Virus record (IMG/VR): IMGVR_UViG_3300025270_001776
Length of the DNA: 20,000 nt
Source of the DNA: an uncultured virus (IMG/VR IMGVR_UViG_3300025270_001776)
Lineage: Duplodnaviria; Heunggongvirae; Uroviricota; Caudoviricetes
Reading direction: 5' to 3' (one strand)
Shown here: positions 2,758-18,411 of the stretch, piece after piece
Position numbering within the stretch: position 1 is the stretch's first letter
Layout: every line of letters starts with the position of its first letter
The notes under the pieces: model-generated
The model's database searches: none
Seen by the model: only the letters and a program-made list of their open reading frames with translations
Told to the model about the DNA's origin: nothing
Translations under genes and position numbers: made by a program

Positions 2758-3213
2758 TTAGGTAATCTTTAAATCAAGATTTGTTTTAACATTGTAGATC
2801 TCTAGACCGTTCTTAACTAAAAATTGATGTACAGATGTATCGTTATCATTCTTGGAAGATACAAAAGAATCTTTTTCTATGTACCACTTATTAATGCCAT
2901 TTTGCCATAATAGTTTAGCACACCGAAAACATGGATAATGTGTGACATACGCTTTAAGGGGACCAAAATATCTGCGTTCCATATTAGATACGGCATTTTC
3001 TTCAGCATGAACCATAAACGGATATTTTTCTGGACGAAAAGTAGGAAGGACAGAGTCGTTACAACCTGCTGGAAAACCATTGTAACCCATACCTACTACA
3101 TGATTAAGTGTATTAACTAAAACGCACCCAACCCTAGTCTCGCTATCGTGACTACGGATGGATGCGTAATGAGCCATACCCATAAAATACTGATCCCAAG
3201 ACGGTCTGTCCAT
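2758..3213 (-). CDS. dCMP deaminase (ComEB/cytidine deaminase family)
   Basis: RPSWDQYFM N-terminus, GYNGFP, HAEENA and PCFRC zinc-binding motifs. Confidence 0.93.
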   Translation of the reverse strand: MDRPSWDQYFMGMAHYASIRSHDSETRVGCVLVNTLNHVVGMGYNGFPAGCNDSVLPTFRPEKYPFMVHAEENAVSNMERRYFGPLKAYVTHYPCFRCAKLLWQNGINKWYIEKDSFVSSKNDNDTSVHQFLVKNGLEIYNVKTNLDLKIT

Positions 3214-4463: not shown

Positions 4464-4916
4464 TCATCGGTTTATTTTTTCAAATGATTTTAAGGCTTTT
4501 TTAAATCTTCTTCTAGCGGTTTCTCGACTGTAACCGTTTTGCCGTCCCATTTCTTCCATGGTCATGCCGTATACATATTTTTGTTTAATCAAAATAGTAT
4601 ATTCATCACTTAAACCGTCTAGCACATGATCTATATCGTCTATAACCTCACTAGACTTTTCGATATTTTTACAGCTGAACTCCCTTTTCTTTTTTTTCAT
4701 AGTATTTTTTATAGCATAGTCAAGCTGTTGATATAGAAACGTAGTAAACTTAGTTTTTTTAGATGGATCATATCTGTTAAGACATCTCCAAAGTGTAGTT
4801 AATTTTAGTGAATACAAATCGTCTGCGCTTAAAGCAGTAGAATATCTTGCGCAAACCTTATTCATAACCTTAATATTATCAATATTGCTCAAGGATTCTT
4901 CAAAAGTTCTATCCAT
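4464..4916 (-). CDS. Phage-encoded sigma-70 family RNA polymerase sigma factor (regions 2 and 4 only)
   Basis: Region-2-like DDLYSLKLTTLWRCLNRYDPSKKTKFTTFLYQQLDYAI and region-4 HTH LSDEYTILIKQKYVYGMTMEEMGRQNGYSRETARRRFKKAL; 150 aa. Confidence 0.85.
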   Translation of the reverse strand: MDRTFEESLSNIDNIKVMNKVCARYSTALSADDLYSLKLTTLWRCLNRYDPSKKTKFTTFLYQQLDYAIKNTMKKKKREFSCKNIEKSSEVIDDIDHVLDGLSDEYTILIKQKYVYGMTMEEMGRQNGYSRETARRRFKKALKSFEKINR

Positions 4917-5544
4917 TCGTGCTCCTTAATATAACACCACCTAATTTTTGCTTGAGGGCTTCCAATTCACTAAGTTCATCTAAATACTGTTTATTCATAT
5001 CGTCTGAAACTATATAATCTATTTCTCCTTGTGGTGAAACAAATATAGACCAATATCTATTGGTGTCCAGTTGTTCTTTAACCAAATCAACAGCCAACAT
5101 TATTTCTGCGTCGTCGAGAACTTCGCTCACGGTGTAATTACATATTGTATCTTCTATTTCTTTTCTGACTTCGGAAGTATTGAACATTTTTGCAATACCC
5201 ACAAAAAATGTATATCTTCCAAGAGGTTTTAAGGCCTCAATACCGTTAACATCTTCTAGCACTTCAATTATTTCATTAGTTAAATCAAAATTGGTATAGC
5301 ACATCCAACAATCCCACCTATCGGATGGTTTAAGTGAGGACTCTGCTGGGTAAGGCCCATATGGGGTGTACACTACCTTTTGTTTGACGGGAACAAAATA
5401 TTCTTTCAAAAGTCCTTCTGGATCAGTGTCCATCATACCAAATTCTTCGTTTTCTTCTTCTGGTTGGGGTTTCTCTTCTCTTAATATTTCTTCTATTTTG
5501 GCATTCCAGCTCTCCCAGCCTATTTTTTTAGATGTGGACATCAT
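4909..5544 (-). CDS. Hypothetical acidic protein
   Basis: Start revised from 5580 to the ATG at 5544 because of an AAGGAG Shine-Dalgarno upstream. Its stop overlaps the sigma gene start by 8 nt. Confidence 0.8.
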   Translation of the reverse strand: MMSTSKKIGWESWNAKIEEILREEKPQPEEENEEFGMMDTDPEGLLKEYFVPVKQKVVYTPYGPYPAESSLKPSDRWDCWMCYTNFDLTNEIIEVLEDVNGIEALKPLGRYTFFVGIAKMFNTSEVRKEIEDTICNYTVSEVLDDAEIMLAVDLVKEQLDTNRYWSIFVSPQGEIDYIVSDDMNKQYLDELSELEALKQKLGGVILRSTNG

Positions 5545-5931: not shown

Positions 5932-6289
5932 AGTAAGGGTCCAGCTCCGGTAGGTGGGATTTTTCCATTTTATCAAAAGTATAAAAATCACCCTTTTTTT
6001 CTATTACACCAGAAAGAGATAGTGTTGTTATGTAAATCACTTCGGCCTCAGATAGGTTTAATTTTCTGAAACCGCACAACATCTTTGTAGCCCATTCATA
6101 GTCTACATTTAAATATTTTTCATGTATAGAGCGAAGGGTGGATGACTCATCTCCTGTTCCCATATATGCGGAAGGTAAAAACCCCTCATTAGTTAGGAGG
6201 GTCTTAATGTAATTATCATCGGTAGGAAACAGAGATTTATTCATTGTTATCACAAGATAACTAATTTTAATCTTCATTTGTTGACTCAT
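5885..6289 (-). CDS. Hypothetical protein
   Basis: 134 aa ORF tiling between neighbours; the true start may be the ATG at 6277. Confidence 0.7.
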   Translation of the reverse strand: MSQQMKIKISYLVITMNKSLFPTDDNYIKTLLTNEGFLPSAYMGTGDESSTLRSIHEKYLNVDYEWATKMLCGFRKLNLSEAEVIYITTLSLSGVIEKKGDFYTFDKMEKSHLPELDPYYVELISKFGSSTFRR

Positions 6290-6521
6290 CGAGATCTTGT
6301 GCTGACTGTAACTGTTGCATCATTTGTGACTTCATCTCTTGAATCACATTAAAATTGCTTTGGGCCGATTCATACTTCTTAACGGCATTTATAAATTCCC
6401 CAAAAACATCGGGGTGTTCACCAATACCTACCGAACTGGTCATGTAGAGATTAAGAGTAAGAGCGTGCTCATCCATAAGAGCCTTAAAGAGTGATTCGGC
6501 AGCGTTCAAAAAATTATTCAT
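6267..6521 (-). CDS. Small conserved phage hypothetical protein (VGIGEHPD motif)
   Basis: GGGAG SD before the ATG at 6521. The helix-VGIGEHPD-helix pattern is one I recall from small proteins of large myoviruses. Confidence 0.8.
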   Translation of the reverse strand: MNNFLNAAESLFKALMDEHALTLNLYMTSSVGIGEHPDVFGEFINAVKKYESAQSNFNVIQEMKSQMMQQLQSAQDLDESTNED

Positions 6522-6534
6522 GTTTTCTCCCAAT

Positions 6535-6578
6535 AAAAAAGAAAAAGTGAGTCGCTATACTCCATTATAGCAACTCAC
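6535..6578 (-). terminator. Rho-independent terminator overlapping a promoter
   Basis: 13-bp stem GTGAGTTGCTATA / TATAGCGACTCAC (one U-G pair), 6-nt loop ATGGAG, then TTTTTCTTTTTT. Confidence 0.8.
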
Positions 6579-6592
6579 CTTCAATATGTCAA
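6564..6592 (-). promoter_or_regulatory. Perfect-consensus sigma70 promoter
   Basis: Minus strand TTGACA-N17-TATAAT preceded by two A8 tracts (UP-element-like). Confidence 0.92.
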
Positions 6593-6643
6593 TTTTTTTT
6601 ACTTTTTTTTGAAAGTAACTTGGAATTGACTTACCTATATTAT

Positions 6644-6823
6644 TCAGACGGTTTCCCGTACCGTGTCGCCAATAATCCATGCAGCGACAATAGTCGTAAC
6701 ACCCACAATTTGCTCAGTGTCGAATTCCATACCAAAAATTTCTGAGCCAACCACAGCGATAACGCCAGCAGCGGCTACCCAAAAACGACGCGATTTAAGC
6801 AACGAAACAAGTTTATCTTTCAT
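6644..6823 (-). CDS. Small two-TM membrane protein, holin-like (59 aa)
   Basis: Not in the ORF track (<60 aa). AGGAG SD; MKDKLVSLLKSRRFWVAAAGVIAVVGSEIFGMEFDTEQIVGVTTIVAAWIIGDTVRETV. LKSRxFW start plus two hydrophobic helices resembles small phage holin-like proteins. Confidence 0.8.
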   Translation of the reverse strand: MKDKLVSLLKSRRFWVAAAGVIAVVGSEIFGMEFDTEQIVGVTTIVAAWIIGDTVRETV

Positions 6824-6848: not shown

Positions 6849-7496
6849 TTAGCCGTCCGTGTTCACACAAATACTAGGTCCATACAGTTTCTGTATTTTT
6901 TGTATATCGTCTGCCTGTGGCCCCAAAGAGTTATTTATATAAGGAAACATTAACGCATTTTCATCATTAGAATGGTCGAGACCTAATAAATGTCCGATTT
7001 CATGAGCGGCTACAGATCGTAATACGATACCCTGAAGATAATCCTCAGGTATTACCCATTTTTCAGCGAGGTCAAACTTAGTCAACAGCTGACCATCAAA
7101 ATCTTTGTCATTCGGCATTTGTGCCCAAGCTAATATGCCTCCCCTTCTACCGAAACCCTCACGCCATCTACGTCCCACGCTAATGATAATATCGGCTTCA
7201 TTTGAACGGTTGGTGTGCTCAAAAACAAGTGGAGTTATTGCAGACCAAGCGTCAAAAGCGAGCTTAAATTCGTGATCCCATACATCTCTTTCTAATTCTC
7301 TCGTGTCCCTGCCTTGCATATGATAAGAAAGATTATTTTTTCCCCATTTTGATTTTTTTCCAGATACATCCTCTATTGAATCTTTAACGCCACATCTTGG
7401 ATAGTTTTTTGATATCGAGTATGCTTCGTTTTGATTATATATTGAAAAACCTAAAAATGCCGACAAGGTACCAGCACAAAATTTTCTTCTTCTCAT
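6849..7496 (-). CDS. Matrixin / MMP-like zinc metallopeptidase (M10 family) with N-terminal leader and cysteine switch
   Basis: HEIGHLLGLDHS metzincin motif, ALMFP Met-turn, AFDAWSAITPLVF, ADIIIS, PRCGVKD and an MRRRKF leader. Confidence 0.92.
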   Translation of the reverse strand: MRRRKFCAGTLSAFLGFSIYNQNEAYSISKNYPRCGVKDSIEDVSGKKSKWGKNNLSYHMQGRDTRELERDVWDHEFKLAFDAWSAITPLVFEHTNRSNEADIIISVGRRWREGFGRRGGILAWAQMPNDKDFDGQLLTKFDLAEKWVIPEDYLQGIVLRSVAAHEIGHLLGLDHSNDENALMFPYINNSLGPQADDIQKIQKLYGPSICVNTDG

Positions 7497-7507
7497 CGTA
7501 ACCCCCT

Positions 7508-7546
7508 AAAAAAGCACTAAAGCCCCCAATCCATTGAGAGCCTTAG
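7508..7546 (-). terminator. Putative intrinsic terminator or hairpin
   Basis: Minus strand CTAAGGCTCTCAA-TGGA-TTGGGGGCTTTAG (three G-U pairs) followed by TGCTTTTTT. Confidence 0.6.
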
Positions 7547-7556
7547 AGTTTACATC

Positions 7557-7739
7557 CTAGTCTTTTACAAACAGCTGTTTGAAAGAATCTACAGACCACC
7601 ATCCCTGCCACACACCACCGAAAAACACACCAGCGCCGACACAAGCCAAAAAGAGCAACGGTCGACGGTTTGCTAATTCGAGGGGATGCGTGAGGCCATA
7701 AATTAGGCTTCGTAACGGTTTTTTTTCGTCAAAACCCAT
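7557..7739 (-). CDS. Small membrane protein
   Basis: 60 aa with TM segment LLFLACVGAGVFFGGVW; AAGGGG SD. Confidence 0.75.
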   Translation of the reverse strand: MGFDEKKPLRSLIYGLTHPLELANRRPLLFLACVGAGVFFGGVWQGWWSVDSFKQLFVKD

Positions 7740-7767: not shown

Positions 7768-7962
7768 TTAAAACACCCTAAAAACGCCATATGCAATTAC
7801 AGCAACGGCAGCAGCTATCGCAAACCACTTAAATACACTCGCTAGAGCTAAAAGTAAATCACGAAGTGGTCTGGGTCGCTTTATTCTCCACTCTCTATAT
7901 CTATCTACTCGTTTTCTATAGGCCTCCCTACGTTTTTCTGCCTTTTCTGCAAATGATGCCAT
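7768..7962 (-). CDS. Small membrane protein with basic N-terminus
   Basis: 64 aa; Arg/Lys-rich helix then a long hydrophobic C-terminus; GAGG SD. Confidence 0.75.
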   Translation of the reverse strand: MASFAEKAEKRREAYRKRVDRYREWRIKRPRPLRDLLLALASVFKWFAIAAAVAVIAYGVFRVF

Positions 7963-10398: not shown

Positions 10399-11124
10399 TC
10401 AATTATTTCCTATGGTGTTTCTAAGTTCGGTTGCGTTGGGTATTAATTCATATTTAATATTACCTAAATTAAATTTGTCAGCAGGCGAGAGGAATTGCTT
10501 CCACTGATCATTCTTTATGCGGCACTCTAGAAAATTACAAAGTCCAAGAAAATTTTTTTGCACATTTTCATTGTACCATTTTTCATAAGTTATATAATAT
10601 GTCTGTTTACGTTGTGCCATTCTACGGTATATTTTTAAATTTTTATTCAGCAGCCTGTGCCTATGGTTGACAAGACCCATAGGCATCGGGTCTCTCATGA
10701 GAGTATGGAAATCTGAAAAATCTTTTTTCGTATGACCACCTTCGGCCTTGTCCCATTCATTCCAAAATGAGTGTCCAGTTTTTTGTTTATAGTTAATAGA
10801 CATCCATTCTGATAAAGCAACCTCCAGCTGGTCTTCTCTGTGTATAAAAACAATTTTGTGAGCGATGTCAAACAGTCTCTTCAAATCAGCCATTGGGATT
10901 TGGTGAGACAAATGTTTGATACCTTCGTTTGACATAGTTGCTAACATCTCAAATACAGATTCAATATCCTCATGCACAATAAGGTTATCTGGCCCCTTTT
11001 TAATATTCTTGTTGCAGTCTGGATTAAAGGGTTCTACTAAAATATTAATGTCCGTAGACTTGTTTAAAGATTTGTTTATTGATGTACTTCCACATCTGGG
11101 AGTTGTTCCAAATAGTAATATCAT
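10399..11124 (-). CDS. PAPS-dependent sulfotransferase (Stf0-like)
   Basis: 5'-PSB loop TPRCGST, EPFNP, 3'-PB-like IHREDQLEVALS and ITYE motif. Confidence 0.8.
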   Translation of the reverse strand: MILLFGTTPRCGSTSINKSLNKSTDINILVEPFNPDCNKNIKKGPDNLIVHEDIESVFEMLATMSNEGIKHLSHQIPMADLKRLFDIAHKIVFIHREDQLEVALSEWMSINYKQKTGHSFWNEWDKAEGGHTKKDFSDFHTLMRDPMPMGLVNHRHRLLNKNLKIYRRMAQRKQTYYITYEKWYNENVQKNFLGLCNFLECRIKNDQWKQFLSPADKFNLGNIKYELIPNATELRNTIGNN

Positions 11125-11125
11125 G

Positions 11126-12097
11126 TTACCCGCTCACAATATATGATAACGACTTTACTAATGATTGCGAAAACAAATGGCCACTAAGCCACCTTTTATC
11201 CATTTGCTTAAGATAAGTATGGGCTTTTATTATATTGTTAGTATTCGATAGCAATTGGGCCGCATGATTAAGATTATTGAAATACAAGGGATAATCTTCT
11301 CCTAGGTATTCTACAACTGCGTCTATCTTATTTATTAGAATGGGAGTATTGCTGGCCACACATTCAATTACGGCGTTATTAGCAGAACTATCGTACAGAT
11401 CTAAAAAGACAACAGATGATGACATTAGATAGTCGTACTCTTCGTTTGTTACGGTGTCACATATCGCCACTGAAGAGTCTTTAAATAGGTAGCTATGAGG
11501 CTGAGGTAGTAGTGACTTGTATTTATCAAATAAACCTATCGCGTGATCCTTCTCACTAGGAAGCCAAACTTTACAAAATTGTGGCGGCGATTGTAAATCA
11601 AATATGGATTCCAATTTTCTTAACCAATAACCTATTTGAATAATTTTTTTAGGGTGACAAGATAAAAATTTAGAAGGTGACCATTTGATCAAAGGGATTC
11701 GTGTAGGATGCTTGATTGATATCACTGGCACCTCTACCCTTTTACGAAGCCACTTACCAAGATACTCCGATAGCGTAACAAAGCATTTACAGGTAGATAA
11801 AGATTCCTTAAATACCTGCCTATCCAGTATGGCCTGTGGCGAATTATATATTTCAAACCAATCAGGAGGATTTGGAGGATTATGTAAGAACCCAATCCAA
11901 TCTTGTTTGTAGGGCAGATTGTGTGGATTGTTTCCACAGTAATATTCGTTTAGTTTCCATGAGAAACTTCTTTCCATGAAATCATCAAGAATAATACCCG
12001 CCTTAGAATGAAATGGGCGCAGAGAGTTTATACAATAAGACCACCCACTTCTATGGTGAGTAAACCCGCTGCACTGAGACAGGTTTAAAGATATCAT
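11126..12097 (-). CDS. Putative GT-B glycosyltransferase-like protein
   Basis: TLSEYL and C-terminal VVFLDLYDSSANNAVIECVASNTPILINKIDAVVEYLG resemble the GT-B nucleotide-sugar binding region. Confidence 0.65.
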   Translation of the reverse strand: MISLNLSQCSGFTHHRSGWSYCINSLRPFHSKAGIILDDFMERSFSWKLNEYYCGNNPHNLPYKQDWIGFLHNPPNPPDWFEIYNSPQAILDRQVFKESLSTCKCFVTLSEYLGKWLRKRVEVPVISIKHPTRIPLIKWSPSKFLSCHPKKIIQIGYWLRKLESIFDLQSPPQFCKVWLPSEKDHAIGLFDKYKSLLPQPHSYLFKDSSVAICDTVTNEEYDYLMSSSVVFLDLYDSSANNAVIECVASNTPILINKIDAVVEYLGEDYPLYFNNLNHAAQLLSNTNNIIKAHTYLKQMDKRWLSGHLFSQSLVKSLSYIVSG

Positions 12098-12963
12098 ATT
12101 ATCTTTCTACCTAACATTCCCTCAAAGAAGCCCACTTGATATTTACACTTCAGCAATACTAACTTTTCAGCATAACTATAATTTGTTTCCTCGTTATCCG
12201 ACAGAAGCCAGCGAGGAGATGTGTTATCAAACATTTCTGGAGACTCAATAAATCTATGCCATGTTTCTGCCAGTCTTTCCTTGTCCGTCTTATAAGATAT
12301 AAGTATACCGTCTTGATATCCTAAGTCATAATAATATTCAGAAATACTTTCTACATCAAATTCAGCCTCTGATATAAAATATATACTCTTTAAAGAAGAC
12401 GAATGTATTATCCGGCCCTTCGTGGACATCATTTTTATAAAATGTTTATTATTGCGTAAGTACCCTCTAGGAGAAGCCACAGGAGTATATCCACCCATAT
12501 CATTATACACTACTCCAGAAAAGAAGCATCCGTTAATGGGCGGAAAATTATGTTCTTCATCTGATATGTCAATCAATAACATCTCTTCTGTAACTGGTAT
12601 ATTATAGTTTTTATAATTTTCCTCAATCGCTTTTGTAAACCAATCGGAATTATTTTTATGTCGAGTACAAATTGGCCCACACAACACGGTCGCATCTCTA
12701 TGTAAATTATTTATAGAAACAACAGCCGCCAAATAATCACTTCTAATAAACATATTTTCATCTAATATACCCACTAACGAAGCATCACTAGTTGTAGGGA
12801 TATTCTCTACATCTACAAGAGTAACTATAGCATCAATACCAAATTGGGTAGCTTGTTTTTGAAGGGAGTCTGTACACGATTCCAAAACGGTGTCCTTTTG
12901 TCGTATACTGTTTTCCTTAACTGTATGTTTGTTTGGTATAACAAATATTTCAATTTGTTTCAT
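12094..12963 (-). CDS. Divergent GT2-like glycosyltransferase
   Basis: LVGILDENMFIRSDYLAAV and VLCGPI resemble the GT-A pattern xxFLDDDxxxxxxWL...GG, but the DxD is degenerate (DEN). Confidence 0.5.
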   Translation of the reverse strand: MKQIEIFVIPNKHTVKENSIRQKDTVLESCTDSLQKQATQFGIDAIVTLVDVENIPTTSDASLVGILDENMFIRSDYLAAVVSINNLHRDATVLCGPICTRHKNNSDWFTKAIEENYKNYNIPVTEEMLLIDISDEEHNFPPINGCFFSGVVYNDMGGYTPVASPRGYLRNNKHFIKMMSTKGRIIHSSSLKSIYFISEAEFDVESISEYYYDLGYQDGILISYKTDKERLAETWHRFIESPEMFDNTSPRWLLSDNEETNYSYAEKLVLLKCKYQVGFFEGMLGRKII

Positions 12964-13362: not shown

Positions 13363-14004
13363 TTAATCCTCCCATTCCAGTGCTGCTGACACGTTAGAAA
13401 AGTTTTCTTGAAATATTTTTTTGATTCCGTTTGCGACCTCCCTATGTTCCTTTTGTGTCTCCTCCTTACATCTTAGTTGCAAGTAATGTACCCAACTCCT
13501 AATACTTCCTTTCATATACATAGTAGTCTGTATTCCCAATGGAAGAATCATTCTAGCGGATTCTTTTGCTACACCCATAGCAATCATGTCACCATAAACC
13601 TGAAGACATCTATCCATTGCTTGTTTTGCATGGGCGTGCCATTTTTGATCAGCAATATCCGTACTACTCTGCCGATTACTTTTGGCTTGGTTACGCAGTT
13701 CTAGGTCCTCTATTTCTTGGGCTACTGAATATCTTTGGGAAAATTCTTGGAAAGAAAAAGAGCGATGCCGCAAAATTTGTGCGGCTATCGCCCTACTAGT
13801 TTTTATCTCCACGCACATATCTACCATTTCAAATGGAGACCAGTGCTTATGTTTAATTAAATATTTAATAAGACGAGGAGCAGTTTCATTGTTAGACTGA
13901 TTTTCAGGATTACTGACCCTAGCACAATATACTATCAGCTCCTCTGGCAAAGCTAGATCTTCAATTAACGGAGCTGTTATACTAACGAGCTTTACTTCCA
14001 TCAA
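13363..14004 (-). CDS. thyX: Flavin-dependent thymidylate synthase
   Basis: CARVSNP, HWSPFEM, RHRSFSFQEFSQRY signature, ESARMILP and TQKEHR. Confidence 0.97.
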   Translation of the reverse strand: MMEVKLVSITAPLIEDLALPEELIVYCARVSNPENQSNNETAPRLIKYLIKHKHWSPFEMVDMCVEIKTSRAIAAQILRHRSFSFQEFSQRYSVAQEIEDLELRNQAKSNRQSSTDIADQKWHAHAKQAMDRCLQVYGDMIAMGVAKESARMILPLGIQTTMYMKGSIRSWVHYLQLRCKEETQKEHREVANGIKKIFQENFSNVSAALEWED

Positions 14005-14690: not shown

Positions 14691-15926
14691 CTATTTTTTT
14701 CCCCAACCCTCTCGTAATACACGTAAGGCATTACCCCCTAGTATGTGTTCCATCTGTTTTTCCGTGTACCCTAACGCGCATAAATAACTCGTAAGTCGAG
14801 GCATTTCTGACATATCTACAATTTCGTCTGGAGGATCAGTAAACCCATCCAAGTCACTACCTATTCCTACTACTTCTATTCCACCTACATTTATCATATG
14901 ATTAATATTATTTTCTATATGCTTTAATCCTAATCCACTGTGCGAATTAGATAAATAATAAGTCATCAGTATTACACCAATAACCCCTCCATTATCAGCA
15001 ATCCATTTAATTTCTTTATTGGTTAGGTTGATAGGGTCACGGTTAATATCAAAGGAGGCCATGTGACTAGCTATAATACAATTCTTTTTGCGATGGTGCT
15101 TGGCGATATCCATAACCTTAGCTCTGGCACTGGGCGTACAGTGTGTGATGTCTATCAGCATCCCCAACTCCAGCATTCTTTCTACTACCTTTTCGCCTAT
15201 GGATGTCAACCCTTTATTCATATCCCAACTGCCAGTTACTTTACGCCAGTCAAGCATCTTGCTAGAATATTCTGGATAAGGAAACACGGGATAAGCCACA
15301 TGGTTAGGATAGAAATGAGCCAAAGTGAGATAGGCCACACCCCGATTGAAAAGGTATACCAGATTAGATAATAATTCTTTTTCAACTGAATCGGCACACG
15401 CTCCATCTTCCACGGTTTTTCCGCCCTCTATACCATTAAGAGAATGGGCTCCTTCCACAGAATGCACAACACACATATCTCCAGCCTCAAGACCTTGGTT
15501 CAATGTTGAAACAGAATCAGACAAACATACTTTTCTAGAAGGCTTCTTCTTGTTATATGAAATAATCTGACGTTCCATTTCATCTAACATAAAATTTGTA
15601 GCATCAAAATAGGGAGGATCTACGATGGCGCGTCGTACACTGGGGAATATTCTAAAGAGCCACCTTATAAGGGAGATTTCTTTAATCCACTCTTGTTCTA
15701 AAATATAAGCAGTAGATAGTATTACATCTACACCACCCTTGTCCATCTTGGGAAACGTAACTCGATTACTAAGTGGCCAAAATTTCTTGTCAAACATTCT
15801 AGATAGCCAATTTCTTTTGGATGAGTCTAGACTGATTTCCAAAATAATAGCCTTGAGGGCTGGATGCGTATGTAGATCTACAAGCGTAGATTCTTTATGT
15901 AGATTTTGCCAGTTCATATCAATCAC
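14691..15926 (-). CDS. Membrane/renal dipeptidase family protein (peptidase M19, amidohydrolase fold)
   Basis: VDLHTH, HSVEGAH, LTLAH, GLTSIGEKVV, IDITHC, ASH, GGVIGV, GIGSDLDG and ILGGNALRV motifs. Confidence 0.9.
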   Translation of the reverse strand: MIDMNWQNLHKESTLVDLHTHPALKAIILEISLDSSKRNWLSRMFDKKFWPLSNRVTFPKMDKGGVDVILSTAYILEQEWIKEISLIRWLFRIFPSVRRAIVDPPYFDATNFMLDEMERQIISYNKKKPSRKVCLSDSVSTLNQGLEAGDMCVVHSVEGAHSLNGIEGGKTVEDGACADSVEKELLSNLVYLFNRGVAYLTLAHFYPNHVAYPVFPYPEYSSKMLDWRKVTGSWDMNKGLTSIGEKVVERMLELGMLIDITHCTPSARAKVMDIAKHHRKKNCIIASHMASFDINRDPINLTNKEIKWIADNGGVIGVILMTYYLSNSHSGLGLKHIENNINHMINVGGIEVVGIGSDLDGFTDPPDEIVDMSEMPRLTSYLCALGYTEKQMEHILGGNALRVLREGWGKK

Positions 15927-16347
15927 TGAATAAGATATTTAAGTTACCCCGAACAGTTGTTTCAACATCTTCCAAATGATCATCAGACATTGGATATAGA
16001 AAGGGAGAAACCTCGGCTCGCACCTCCGTGGGAGCGTCAGGAATCCATTCCAAATCTTTTACGGTAAGAACCACAGAAGCTCCCTTAGATTTAAAGTCGT
16101 GCCCTTCGATTTCATTTACAGACGTAATAGATACATGTACATCATCAGTGTATTTAGGGTTCCATACCTTACCGTCTTTATTCCACAGCGGAAGACTGCC
16201 CCTCCATTCGTTCTGAGTGGGACCAAGAATTTCACTGACATATGGTACACCGCTAGGCATTAATCCTAAAACGTTTATTTCAAATTCCTGATGATGAATA
16301 CCAGAAGGCGGCACCCACTGCACATGTATCTCTGGATATTTTCTCAC
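15919..16347 (-). CDS. Hypothetical protein, possibly fibronectin-III/Ig-like
   Basis: GTG start; IHVQWVPP...VHVSITSVN...S...PDAPTEV pattern is reminiscent of FN3. The fold call is weak. Confidence 0.65.
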   Translation of the reverse strand: MRKYPEIHVQWVPPSGIHHQEFEINVLGLMPSGVPYVSEILGPTQNEWRGSLPLWNKDGKVWNPKYTDDVHVSITSVNEIEGHDFKSKGASVVLTVKDLEWIPDAPTEVRAEVSPFLYPMSDDHLEDVETTVRGNLNILFSD

Positions 16348-16350
16348 ATT

Positions 16351-16953
16351 TTACCTTTCGTATTTAACATCTTTCTTGTCTTCTCTTTTATCTTTCTCCA
16401 AATCTCGAATTTCTCTTTCGATATTTTTGATAGCGTCCTTGTGATGCTTTAGGCGTTCACGAAGTGTTTCACTATCCATTTCTTTCTTGTCTTGATGATC
16501 TTCGTCTCGATCTAGTCTTTCATGTCTTTGACGATCAGAAGCATCTCTCTTGTCGTATCGCTCGTCTTTTTTCAGATCTTTAGTTTCTCTTTCTTTCTTA
16601 TCAGAAGGAGGATCTTTTTTAAGCTTTTTGAGTTTTTCTTTATCGTCTTTTATAGCGTCCTTTTCATGTTCTTTTTTTTCTTTTTTGGTATCACGTTTGA
16701 GTTCTTTTCTATCAATTTTATCCCAATCTTTTTTGGTTTTGCCTGATGTGCCATCAAGCTCTTCACTATATTTAGTAGCTCTATATTCATCATCAGTTTT
16801 ACCGAGAAGGCCTTGAGATTTCTTTTTTCTGAATTGACTCATACAAATAGCAATCGCTTGCTTATTATCTTTAGCCTCTTTGCTGGCAATAGGCATACAT
16901 CTTTGCACAAAATCAGATTCTTTTTCGTTTTTGTTAGGTGTTGGTAGTGGCAT
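16351..16953 (-). CDS. MPLPTP-motif protein with highly charged repetitive C-terminus
   Basis: N-terminal MPLPTPNKNEKESDFVQRCM...QAIAICMSQF, then a K/D/E/R-dominated region with internal repeats. Confidence 0.85.
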   Translation of the reverse strand: MPLPTPNKNEKESDFVQRCMPIASKEAKDNKQAIAICMSQFRKKKSQGLLGKTDDEYRATKYSEELDGTSGKTKKDWDKIDRKELKRDTKKEKKEHEKDAIKDDKEKLKKLKKDPPSDKKERETKDLKKDERYDKRDASDRQRHERLDRDEDHQDKKEMDSETLRERLKHHKDAIKNIEREIRDLEKDKREDKKDVKYER

Positions 16954-16954
16954 A

Positions 16955-17626
16955 TCAGATTCCTTTTAGTAAGTGCTGTTTAACATTATTCCACAGTACG
17001 TTTGCTAGAACTACACCAGCATCGTTATCAGAAGCATAATGAACTCCCTGTAAAACTCTCGCATAACCCGCTAGTAATCCCATCCTGTAGAACTCAGGTG
17101 CATGTTCTGGGTATATATCGCTCAGTATAGAAGCCACCAGAGCACCATAGGCAGCATGACCAGAAGGATAAGCGGGAGTTTGATGAGTATCAGTATTAAT
17201 AATATCTAGAGGGATATTAAAAATTTTAGCCAGCTGATAAGGACGTGGTCGTGAATACTGCCATTTTAATTGAATGGCGACAATTTCTAAGATATCGTTA
17301 GCTTTCTTAAATATATTATGAGGAAAAGAAAGGTTGTGTTTCTTTAAGAATGGCAGAAATAGATCGATGGGATCTTTATCCACGAGCTTTATAAGATCTA
17401 TATCTAATTTTGTACGATTACTCGTAGCCTCAGATACGTTTTTAAGCTCATTTCTGGTGATATCACTATCGTTTTGAGGAGGGGCTGGAAGGATATTTTT
17501 CCAGTCAATAGTGACAAGTTGAGATACACTTTTACGCAACAACCTACGGTAATGTGCGCTAGGTGGATAAGTGTATTTAATATTATTTATGTAGCCGCTT
17601 TCGGCGAGTAGGATCTGTTCTTCCAT
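16955..17626 (-). CDS. PAP2 superfamily phosphatase / vanadium haloperoxidase-like protein
   Basis: KWQYSRPRP, YPSGH and RVLQGVHYASD: all three PAP2 motifs. No TM helices evident. Confidence 0.9.
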   Translation of the reverse strand: MEEQILLAESGYINNIKYTYPPSAHYRRLLRKSVSQLVTIDWKNILPAPPQNDSDITRNELKNVSEATSNRTKLDIDLIKLVDKDPIDLFLPFLKKHNLSFPHNIFKKANDILEIVAIQLKWQYSRPRPYQLAKIFNIPLDIINTDTHQTPAYPSGHAAYGALVASILSDIYPEHAPEFYRMGLLAGYARVLQGVHYASDNDAGVVLANVLWNNVKQHLLKGI

Positions 17627-17819
17627 AGTCTATTTCCATTTCGATAATATCACCTTTTTGTTGGGTGCCACAAAATGGACATACAAATATGTATGATCTG
17701 CCAGATTTTGTTTCAACAATATCTACAAGATTACATAGTCTGGAATCGTATTCAGTCTTACAAGAACTACAATATAATCCATACTGACTGTGATTTATGT
17801 ACGTGTCAAACTGGCTCAT
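17583..17819 (-). CDS. Small zinc-ribbon protein
   Basis: CSSC...CPFC pairs; GGGGGTG SD. Confidence 0.7.
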   Translation of the reverse strand: MSQFDTYINHSQYGLYCSSCKTEYDSRLCNLVDIVETKSGRSYIFVCPFCGTQQKGDIIEMEIDYGRTDPTRRKRLHK

Positions 17820-17841
17820 AGTTTCACCCCCATTTTAATAT

Positions 17842-17848
17842 ATACACA
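17842..17848 (-). promoter_or_regulatory. Putative phage-specific promoter motif TGTGTAT (copy 3)
   Basis: TTTGTGTATATATTAAAAT in a 40-nt intergenic gap, 22 nt before the ATG at 17819. Confidence 0.5.
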
Positions 17849-17859
17849 AATTATGACTT

Positions 17860-18411
17860 TTAACCAAATACATCCTGAATTATACTTCCCGCATCTGTAT
17901 AAGATTTATCCTTGAGAAACCCCTTTACTGTGTCAGTGGCTTCTTTTTTGCGAAAACCAAGGGAAGTAAGGCCCTGAATTGCTTCCCGTGCCACCTGCGG
18001 GGGTGTATTATGCTTTGGTTGAGAGGGAGTCTCTACCTTTGGTTTGGGAGTAGCTTTTGGTTTCGCAGACACTGGCTTTGAGGGTGCTCGTTTTGGTTTC
18101 GAAGAAGCGGTCTTCGGTGGCCTTTGTTTGGTCACGGGTGAAGATTTAGGAGTTTTTGATGGAGACTTAGGTTGAAATACATTTTCTGTAACCCAGTCTC
18201 TAGCATCAGCATCTCCGTTAATAGCATTCTGTATGGTACGCTGTTTAATTTGTGTCCACGCTTCTGTTTCTGATTCAACAGAATTGTACTGACCAGATTC
18301 TATGTTTGACAGAATAGCTCCTACAAAATACAAAACTATAGGCACAAGAAGAGCAGCCGTAAAAATAAAAAGCAGATCAGAATTCCATGTCCCAATATTT
18401 TCCATTATCAT
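17860..18411 (-). CDS. Membrane-anchored protein with Pro/Lys linker and C-terminal RuvA domain III/UBA-like domain
   Basis: TM segment LLFIFTAALLVPIVLYFVGAIL, a P/K/S-rich linker, then EAIQGLTSLGFRKKEATDTVK...SIIQDVF. Confidence 0.75.
   Translation of the reverse strand: MIMENIGTWNSDLLFIFTAALLVPIVLYFVGAILSNIESGQYNSVESETEAWTQIKQRTIQNAINGDADARDWVTENVFQPKSPSKTPKSSPVTKQRPPKTASSKPKRAPSKPVSAKPKATPKPKVETPSQPKHNTPPQVAREAIQGLTSLGFRKKEATDTVKGFLKDKSYTDAGSIIQDVFG

Follow-up and report, generated by a model that had tools for sequence, protein, structure and literature searches.

Can a short cysteine-switch peptide keep a matrixin latent without the three-helix prodomain, and can a move from a reducing to an oxidising compartment serve as the trigger of its activation? 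Both questions are raised by one gene in a 20,000-nucleotide stretch of DNA from an uncultured virus of the Caudoviricetes (IMG/VR record IMGVR_UViG_3300025270_001776); the whole of this stretch is called the window below. The gene codes for a protein of the matrix metalloproteinase (MMP) type, and together with its relatives it offers a natural and widespread test of the first question. We propose that its product is a minimal pro-matrixin, consisting of a leader for the twin-arginine translocation (Tat) pathway, a propeptide of about 20 residues in which the switch cysteine is the sole invariant residue, and an MMP-type catalytic domain. That the protein is both exported by Tat and held latent by its cysteine is, in our judgement, moderately probable. 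The window corresponds at 99.77% identity to positions 69578-89576 of a longer virus record, G001 (103,239 bp, 67% complete), which was used as genome context. A related virus record with the same matrixin family, G002 (125,570 bp, 83% complete), is considered beside it.

The catalytic part of the protein is plain. The open reading frame (ORF) lies on the minus strand, a point on which the initial annotation was silent, and starts at the first ATG after an in-frame stop, as judged from the ORF list and a reading of the sequence. PF00413 (Peptidase_M10) covers residues 50-206 with all 159 of its profile positions and scores 119.6 bits (cut-off 24; E 1.5e-34). The zinc site HEIGHLLGLDH and the Met-turn are present, and H165, E166, H169, G172 and H175 were invariant in a 48-sequence alignment of the family. 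A search of 5.8 billion proteins returned 143 relatives at E <=0.001; the best 120 of these are the basis of the family counts given here, and 118 of the 120 carry HExxHxxGxxH by regular expression. When the predicted mature form (residues 28-215) was modelled with AlphaFold2 on 111 sequences, the mean predicted local distance difference test score (pLDDT) was 88.9. The model was aligned by VIA-align with the catalytic domains of MMP-1, -2, -9 and -13 and of karilysin at Z 21.5-22.7, with 37-41% identity to the MMPs. The best match was 2tcl (Z 22.7, root-mean-square deviation 2.1 over 157 residues), 362 chains were found at Z >=8, and Foldseek gave E 4e-14. By profile, by zinc site with Met-turn and by MMP fold, the protein is a matrixin (Pfam PF00413, MEROPS M10A), although a PHROGs scan of the protein matched no family. 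The M10 catalytic domain that the initial annotation had read from the letters is thereby borne out, and all the N-terminal motifs that it named are found in the 215-residue ORF, including a hydrophobic G/A/S-rich stretch (residues 7-20), EAYS (24-27), GKKSK (45-49) and KWGKNNLSY (50-58).

The evidence for a cysteine switch comes from the residues directly ahead of this domain. In a phmmer search against the PDB, the top match was proMMP-9 (5ue3_A, E 1e-23, query residues 31-207), in which 'nyPRCGVkD' of the phage protein falls on 'rtPRCGVpD', and PRCGV was likewise aligned to the switch of proMMP-2 (PRCGNPD) and of proMMP-1. Of the two features that mark a proMMP-type zymogen, the PRCGxPD-type cysteine motif upstream of the catalytic domain is present, while the PG_binding_1-like helical prodomain was not found in the window protein (no PF01471 match). 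The reading of the motif as PRCGxPD in the initial annotation holds at six of the seven positions and fails at the proline, in place of which Lys38 stands. Its statement that the helical prodomain is absent agrees with the architecture: only 32 residues precede the motif, 27 of them belong to the leader, and from the likely signal-peptidase site to the cysteine there are only about 8 residues, whereas relatives do carry PF01471.

Conservation singles out the cysteine. Cys35 was invariant in 48/48 and in 111/111 aligned sequences, with no other residue of the propeptide ahead of the catalytic domain conserved to this degree. By pattern, 107 of the 120 relatives have at least 30 residues before the catalytic Trp, the other 13 being truncated or missed by the pattern; in 106 of the 107 a cysteine lies 13-22 residues before that Trp. 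The flanks drift around it, with exact PRCG in 20/107, P-x-C in 51/107 and a glycine after the cysteine in 61/106.

A cysteine so placed could have a task other than blocking zinc, namely as a lipid-attachment site, as one half of a disulfide or as a folding relic. The lipobox has the pattern [LVI][ASTVI][GAS]C, with the cysteine as the first mature residue. In the family, the residue before the cysteine is F in 38, R in 33, K in 10 and Y in 8 relatives (together 89/106) and Gly in only 1/106, which excludes a lipobox; Cys35 itself, being preceded by Arg, was rejected as a lipoprotein site. Since no second cysteine is conserved in the family alignments as a possible partner, a fixed disulfide is excluded as well, and both the position of Cys35 and its flanks P-x-C-G-V match the proMMP switch. 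The modest AlphaFold confidence at the cysteine speaks for such another task, as does a lipobox after the RR leader in a few distant members (P0115, L029-L031, P0119); these members, however, keep a second, downstream cysteine at the switch place. We regard this explanation as very improbable.

Two minor observations concern the same residue. The lipobox-like LxGC directly after the RR leader is seen in P0115 and L029-L031 (6001-6630), where it reads LLTGCG, in P0119 (LLAGCE), and in P0146 and P0125; with a second cysteine at the switch place, these lipobox-bearing distant members may be Tat-exported lipoprotein versions of the enzyme. A thioredoxin-fold protein with CP[FH]C adjoins a trio of small membrane genes (see below) in two relatives, at L144:16407-16766 (G002) and L028:5258-5563; it could have a bearing on redox control of the switch cysteine.

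The leader was examined for the twin-arginine signal. The core consensus of Tat signals is (S/T)-R-R-x-F-L-K, and the window protein has R-R-R-K-F-C. R3 was invariant and R4 at least 90% conserved in the 48-sequence alignment. Among the 107 relatives defined above, RR was found within the first 30 residues in 98 and RK in 1; in 6 the first residue lies within or beyond the hydrophobic stretch, an indication that their ORFs were called too short, and the other 2 have a long prodomain. When 99 relatives were placed in register, the first position was R in 99/99 and the second R in 97 and K in 2, so that the twin arginine noted in the initial annotation proves to be a feature of the homologs too. 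The +2 residue was F in 69 and F, I, L or V in 91, and the +3 residue was L in 66, which gives the consensus x-R-R-x-F-L. As far as alignments can tell, this RR-x-F-L pattern has a specificity well beyond the unspecific positive charge found in leaders for the general secretory (Sec) pathway.

This last point bears on whether the protein is an ordinary Sec-exported protease, with arginines that merely supply the positive charge at the start of a Sec signal. The n-regions of such signals are basic as well, Sec-type leaders do occur in this phage, for instance on its own trypsin-like protease, and the model for Tat signals is mostly silent on the family (see below). Yet Sec n-regions use K as freely as R, which is hard to reconcile with the near-absence of K at both positions, or with the frequent F at +2 and L at +3. 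The hydrophobic h-region also differs: in the family it has a median length of 19 residues, 41% of them G, A, S or T, and its most hydrophobic 10-residue segment scores a median of 1.86, against 3.33 for the Sec-type leader of the trypsin-like protease. The h-region of the window protein lies below the Kyte-Doolittle threshold of 1.6 for a 19-residue transmembrane (TM) segment. Moreover, basic residues often follow the h-region in the family. We consider plain Sec export improbable. A cleavage site after A25-Y-S27 was judged from the -3/-1 rule by inspection only.

RR leaders are also found on another protein family of these phages. DUF1501 genes (PF07394) occur in three copies in G001 (L137:6398-7666, L137:7680-8930 and L138:10529-11779), one of which has a pattern-matched RR leader (SRRGFLS), and RR leaders stand on the DUF1501 genes L009:4086-5324, L010:1855-3066 and L037:7220-8446 (RRDFMK, RRNFL and RREFL, respectively). 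A DUF1501 gene lies within the examined flanks of the matrixin in 9/40 loci. The DUF1501 proteins are thus an apparent second class of Tat cargo, and their RR leaders suggest that the Tat route is used for other phage proteins too. If so, a lineage of large marine phages would send its own folded enzymes, the matrixin and the DUF1501 proteins, through the Tat system of the host.

Structure prediction was consulted for the position of the switch peptide. Within the N-terminal part of the mature-form model, only residues 31-37 (NYPRCGV) reach pLDDT >=50, and Arg34 among them forms a beta-bridge. The VIA-align ranges against proMMP-2 (1eak_C, model residues 7..182) and proMMP-1 (1su3_A, model residues 7..185) reach to one residue before the cysteine. 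This overlap and the placement at pLDDT 50-70 agree with a docked switch peptide as modelled, short of proof.

Several observations weigh against Tat export combined with cysteine latency. The switch peptide reached only pLDDT 50-70 (block mean 58) in the mature-form model, which is zinc-free, and AlphaFold2 on the full protein with the 48-row alignment left residues 1-45 at pLDDT <50. The +3 residue of the window protein is Cys and not Leu, and TIGR01409, a short and weak Tat model, matched 6/48 members at E <=1 (best 0.012), the window protein not among them. No RNA run was found among the sequencing runs that contain the matrixin gene. Finally, the family probably has no second, structural metal site and so is not a textbook MMP: the MMP-9 ligands of the structural zinc, which we take to be His, Asp, His and His, face W, E, W and K in the phmmer alignment. 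A second structural zinc site is typical of animal MMPs, and neither Pfam nor MEROPS requires it.

The proposed mechanism runs as follows. The protein would be made during infection and, as its Tat leader implies, would fold and take up its catalytic zinc in the host cytoplasm. There the Cys35 thiolate would fill the fourth zinc position as in proMMPs, as suggested by the colinear homology and the invariance of the cysteine, and the cytoplasmic enzyme would be inert. The host Tat system would then move the folded enzyme to the periplasm, where signal peptidase would probably cut after A25-Y-S27. It is on these three events together that the estimate given at the outset was made. More speculatively, the switch might then open in one of two ways: the basic linker could be cut ahead of Lys50-Trp51, or the thiol could become oxidised under the oxidising conditions of the periplasm; for a cleavage, linker residues 40-49 would be the likely site. 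The active protease might finally cut proteins of the host envelope or of the periplasm. The initial annotation had likewise proposed a latent protease exported folded by Tat and activated outside the cytoplasm, and each refuting test of a computational kind that it named spoke for this reading. The parts of the gene and the features around it are collected in Table 1.

Table 1. The matrixin gene, its parts and its immediate neighbours (window positions)
Feature	Position	Strand	Description and basis
Predicted 59-residue protein, cluster c8	6644..6823	minus	two hydrophobic segments, holin-like; directly 3' of the matrixin
Putative phage pro-matrixin, coding sequence	6849..7496	minus	intact, 215 residues plus stop; leader, cysteine-switch peptide and M10 catalytic domain
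Matrixin catalytic domain, residues 50-206	6879..7349	minus	Pfam; AlphaFold2 pLDDT mostly >90; structural alignment
Met183 of the Met-turn ALMFPY	6948..6950	minus	M183 invariant in the 48-sequence alignment
Zinc site, residues 165-175	6972..7004	minus	three His and the general-base Glu; codons checked
Variable linker SIEDVSGKKS, residues 40-49	7350..7379	minus	basic end; variable in the 48-sequence alignment; pLDDT <50 in both models
Cysteine-switch motif PRCGVKD, residues 33-39	7380..7400	minus	contains Cys35; codons checked; phmmer alignment to proMMPs
Predicted leader, residues 1-27	7416..7496	minus	n-region MRRRKF, weakly hydrophobic G/A/S/T-rich h-region, possible signal-peptidase site A25-Y-S27
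Twin-arginine core RR-x-F, residues 2-6 (RRRKF)	7479..7493	minus	conservation in family alignments
Shine-Dalgarno-like AGGGGG	7502..7507	minus	5 nt 5' of the matrixin ATG; by inspection only
Putative terminator-like hairpin with T-run	7517..7546	minus	between the small 5' gene and the M10 start; consensus scan
60-residue single-TM protein, cluster c3	7557..7739	minus	motif NLIYGxTHPL...GWW; 5' neighbour; recurs beside M10
64-residue protein, cluster c19	7768..7962	minus	charged N-terminus, C-terminal TM segment; same design as c54

The distribution of the family points to marine viruses. Nearly all of the best 120 relatives are 200-230 residues long and of marine metagenome origin, on contigs of up to 166 kb, and a scan of viral contigs gave 57 confirmed matches in 52 loci. 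An identical (100%) matrixin protein is present on four viral contigs (L002, L003, L004 and L006) and on G001. The best match in a set with one genome per prokaryotic species was only 32-34% identical. Three listed ESM-Atlas clusters, among them the two nearest (0.97), bear the label 100% viruses; others in the list are mixed, bacterial, archaeal or eukaryotic. As judged from their sequences, about 100 related marine viral genes share the layout of leader plus cysteine.

Outside this group the layout is uncommon, as the initial annotation had supposed. None of the 23 cellular relatives inspected combines an RR leader with the switch, and at least 9 of them (L054, L055, L056, L059, L064, L065, L066, L068 and L099) carry [PSRA]RCGxxD after a helical N-terminal domain and lack a signal peptide. 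Viral contigs carry both layouts, most of them leader plus cysteine; six (L034, L036, L037, L038, L040 and L044) code for PG_binding_1 + PRCG + M10 without a signal peptide. PF01471 exceeds its cut-off in L036, L037 and L038 and falls short of it in L034, L040 and L044. By BLASTP the window protein is 43% identical to the phage long form of L036, and the similarity begins exactly at K-x-x-PRCGV. A profile search of 1.84 billion representatives at 50% identity gave 14,845 matches at E <=0.001, 174 of them at 1e-30. Among the best 150 of these 14,845, at least 60 residues precede the catalytic domain in 111, the short N-terminus is of the leader type in 12 and lacks RR in 9, 8 are N-truncated and 10 were missed by the zinc-site pattern. 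Of the 111 long forms, 94 have a cysteine at the switch place and 71 have PRC[GASN].

A quick maximum-likelihood tree was made of 86 catalytic domains, for which one in every three of the listed proteins was taken, along with each distinct viral ORF and 18 ORFs of cellular origin. Leader-type rows fell together, 54 of 55 being in one group of 57 (SH-aLRT 87, not starred), in which the remaining three rows are truncated ORF calls. Phage long forms adjoin this group, as do two proteins of Planctomycetota, and a starred clade of 70 rows (support 96) encloses them. With the root of the tree not fixed, the simplest history would be a single replacement of the helical prodomain by a Tat leader.

Some minor observations belong to the same relatives. 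One contig, L010, has two matrixin genes 560 bp apart (4861-5433 and 5995-6633) with two small membrane genes between them; one of the pair has PRCGCPD without leader or prodomain (190 residues) and the other has an RK leader. In L034, L036, L037 and L038, the gene after the long-form matrixin always codes for a protein of 517-638 residues of no known family (e.g. L037:3807-5642). A Sec-type leader is evident on this protein in L034, L036 and L037, and further signal-peptide proteins follow. The idea that the long-form phage matrixins are endolysins was found to be without support, the neighbours being secreted proteins and not holins.

What the protease would do once active was approached through its neighbours. 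The holin-like protein directly downstream suggests a role in lysis. It belongs, as c8, to a trio of small membrane proteins (c19/c54, c8 and c3) which recurs flanking the matrixin and/or an M19 dipeptidase. The order is c19-c3-M10-c8 in the window, c19-M10-c8 in L005, M10-c3-M19-c54-c8 in L028, M10-M19-c54-c8-c3 in G002/L027 and M10-c54-c3-M10 in L010. The c3 protein was found in 8/40 non-redundant loci and directly adjoins M10 in the window, L007, L009, L010, L015 and L028. None of the three small membrane proteins of the window (6644-6823, 7557-7739 and 7768-7962) matched a Pfam or PHROG family in our scans.

Our best guess, a tentative one, is that the matrixin may help to break down the envelope and release the virions; a secreted metzincin of phage origin in Listeria (see below), which increases lysis by phages, is a precedent. 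The profiles that match the protein are those of M10 and related zincins, with no known murein-hydrolase domain, which is compatible with the role of a lysis helper. Scans of the phage genomes showed no endolysin-category PHROG in G001, nor among the 136 ORFs of the 83%-complete G002 (a 3,222-residue ORF and ORFs below 60 residues lay outside the scan), and the lysozyme family PF00959 was not found in G001-G004, records that are 43-83% complete. Where genomes are incomplete, however, a missing endolysin carries little weight, and there are further points against a part in lysis. A small TM protein is the direct neighbour in only 8/24 non-redundant leader-type loci. The holin label of c8 comes from the automatic names of the clusters closest to it in the ESM-Atlas ('Holin family protein', 0.96, and 'putative Holin', 0.94) and is no more than a lead. 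Matrixins are not, to our knowledge, able to cut peptidoglycan, and we know of no M10 enzyme that cuts murein.

A more elaborate version makes the protease part of the lysis machinery itself. The folded, zinc-loaded enzyme would be pre-exported by Tat while the membrane is energised, kept silent by the bare switch, and switched on late, by thiol oxidation or clipping, together with the adjacent holin-like protein. We hold this to be unlikely; if true, it would mean that marine phages seemingly without a canonical endolysin possess a new class of lysis protease, exported in advance in a latent form.

The same neighbours can be read in yet another way, in which the leader is not cleaved but serves as a tether like that of signal-anchor-release (SAR) endolysins. 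The latent enzyme would then wait on the inner membrane until the holin-like neighbour collapses the membrane potential, and the matrixin would be a lysis enzyme or accessory. A G/A/S/T-rich h-region below the TM threshold would suit such a tether, as would the holin-like gene directly 3' and the trio that accompanies M10 and/or M19 (window, L005, L010, L027 and L028). The lack of endolysin and PF00959 matches fits as well, and the phage long forms, with PG_binding_1 and a catalytic domain but no signal peptide, are built like modular endolysins. The strict conservation of RR-x-F-L, however, is needless for a SAR anchor, and by inspection many members have small residues at -3/-1 after the h-region. 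The points just raised against lysis (the murein chemistry, the 8/24 loci and the incompleteness of the genomes) apply here too, and the long forms adjoin secreted proteins and not holins. A SAR-like tether therefore seems to us distinctly unlikely.

About equal to the lysis role, and likewise tentative, we rate the possibility that the matrixin is a nutritional auxiliary metabolic gene which recycles periplasmic protein into amino acids. Together with the Sec-exported trypsin-like protease it would digest periplasmic proteins, and the peptides would be re-imported and finished by the M19 dipeptidase and by amino-acid enzymes. Export and opening of the switch would be the same as in the mechanism set out above, the purpose alone being different. 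All of these parts are encoded in G001, where the trypsin-like protease bears a Sec leader, the M19 dipeptidase has no leader, and the amino-acid enzymes belong to an amino-acid/polyamine block. Moreover, M19 adjoins M10 in L027 and L028, and a trypsin-like protease lies near M10 in 6/40 loci. These gene sets are tied by co-occurrence alone, however, the substrate role is a deduction, and the gain within a short lytic cycle is uncertain.

The genes concerned are recorded here in their own right. The M19 'membrane dipeptidase' (PF01244, E ~5e-50), without signal peptide, lies at window 14691-15926 (minus strand), L027:6611-7930 and L028:2261-3652; in L027 and L028 it sits between the matrixin and the small-membrane trio. 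It could act in peptide processing or in cutting a cell-wall precursor dipeptide. The amino-acid/polyamine block of G001 spans 17135-24600 and 95796-97596 (L134, L135 and L138). It comprises an ornithine cyclodeaminase, two saccharopine-dehydrogenase-like proteins, a class III aminotransferase, a DDAH-like protein, an aldehyde dehydrogenase, a glyoxalase-like protein and an AdoMet decarboxylase.

Comparison with known systems places the putative pro-matrixin between several of them. The pro-MMPs of animals and plants (proMMP-9, -2 and -1; M10A) share the fold, HExxHxxGxxH, the Met-turn and a PRCGV.D switch at the same distance from the catalytic domain. They differ in having a three-helix prodomain of about 80 residues, where in the phage protein the Tat-type leader abuts the switch peptide. 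The latter is phage-encoded and has no hemopexin domain, it has PRCGVKD and not PRCGxPD, and the histidines that we take to bind the structural zinc are replaced. The cysteine-switch principle is as described in the accessible part of PMC12027064. The nearest relatives are the prodomain-bearing bacterial and phage matrixins (PG_binding_1 + PRCG + M10), which stand in the same starred clade and include L036; they keep PF01471, lack a signal peptide and outnumber the leader type among the best 150 representatives, 111 to 12.

Latency through a short propeptide has a precedent in an MMP-like enzyme, since karilysin of Tannerella forsythia is kept latent by a 14-residue N-terminal propeptide after its signal peptide, according to the available portion of PMC4404884. 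Its catalytic domain aligns with the phage model at Z 21.6-21.8 with 37% identity; karilysin is cellular, with a Sec signal and a C-terminal extension, whereas the phage matrixin is viral and has a Tat-type leader. The zinc of karilysin is reportedly blocked by an aspartate and not by a cysteine. For the mode of export there are precedents of unrelated fold and chemistry. AmiA and AmiC are zinc cell-wall amidases exported folded by Tat, and SAR endolysins, which act with pinholins, are exported early and stay inactive until triggered.

Among the titles and abstract openings covered by a literature search, no Tat-dependent phage lysis enzyme was found. Nor did our literature searches give any account of matrixins in phages, of phage enzymes exported by Tat or of a cysteine switch without prodomain; Lopez-Pelegrin 2015 and Marino-Puertas 2017 fall outside their coverage and may deal with viral MMPs or with short propeptides. 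In databases, proteins of this kind already go under the name 'matrixin domain-containing'. In Listeria, Mtz/Tim is a pair of phage or mobile-element origin, a secreted metzincin with a TIMP-like lipoprotein, which alters the envelope and raises phage-mediated lysis (PMC8235301, in the text available). Mtz bears a leader of the Sec/SPI type, depends on a partner protein for its control and belongs to a Gram-positive host, in contrast to the cysteine switch of the phage matrixin, and the available text of PMC8235301 does not class it as a matrixin. Rusticalin (PMC6339383) was considered as a relevant system and set aside as irrelevant, being an M15-type peptidase.

There may also be a consequence for marine surveys. 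The accessible text of a 2025 study (PMC12587646) reads the abundance of marine M10 as bacterial use of animal collagen, and the words 'phage' and 'virus' are absent from its main text. With the nearest ESM-Atlas clusters being 100% viral and the closest cellular genome match so distant, part of the marine M10 signal may be viral.

The phage origin stated in the initial annotation is confirmed by the genes around the matrixin. All window genes of at least 70 residues that were taken as real lie on the minus strand and are tightly packed. They include a class II ribonucleotide reductase, a dCMP deaminase, a sigma-70-type factor, a GT4 glycosyltransferase and a cytidylyltransferase, as well as ThyX, the M19 dipeptidase, a PAP2 phosphatase and an IscA-like protein. 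G001 further codes for a split DnaE-like polymerase, DnaB, a primase, a UvsX-like recombinase, SSB, PhoH and rIIA/rIIB, and G002 adds a tape-measure protein of 2,848 residues, a tail fibre and a head-maturation protease. Among 50,697 phage records, no match was found by megablast of the whole window or by tblastn of the matrixin protein (E <=1e-3). The nearest proteins of cultured phages are distant, with 48.6% identity to a Rhizobium phage for the ribonucleotide reductase and about 27-34% for the DnaE-like polymerase. Window DNA is present in 20 sequencing runs from 18 studies, 17 of the runs being flagged as possible sources; their labels are marine, seawater and hydrothermal-vent metagenome, with one coded organism label.

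Some further features of these genomes were noted. A perfect sigma-70 consensus promoter (TTGACA, 17 nt, TATAAT, with TG) lies at window 6564-6592 (minus strand) and overlaps a 17-pair terminator-like hairpin at 6543-6582 (minus strand), just 3' of the holin-like gene. The phage has two ThyX-like and two dCMP-deaminase genes, at window 13363-14004 and 2758-3213 and at G001 92912-93592 and 95348-95812. Outside the window, ARAGORN found a tmRNA-like gene (tag peptide AEPSLALAA) at G001 94305-94563 and a tRNA-Arg(TCT) at 95284-95357. The DnaE-like polymerase is split into two ORFs both in G001 (L136:8502-10103 and 10979-12526) and in G002 (L143:13826-15439 and 16272-18197), and in both genomes an exonuclease-subunit-like gene and a small ORF lie between the two halves.

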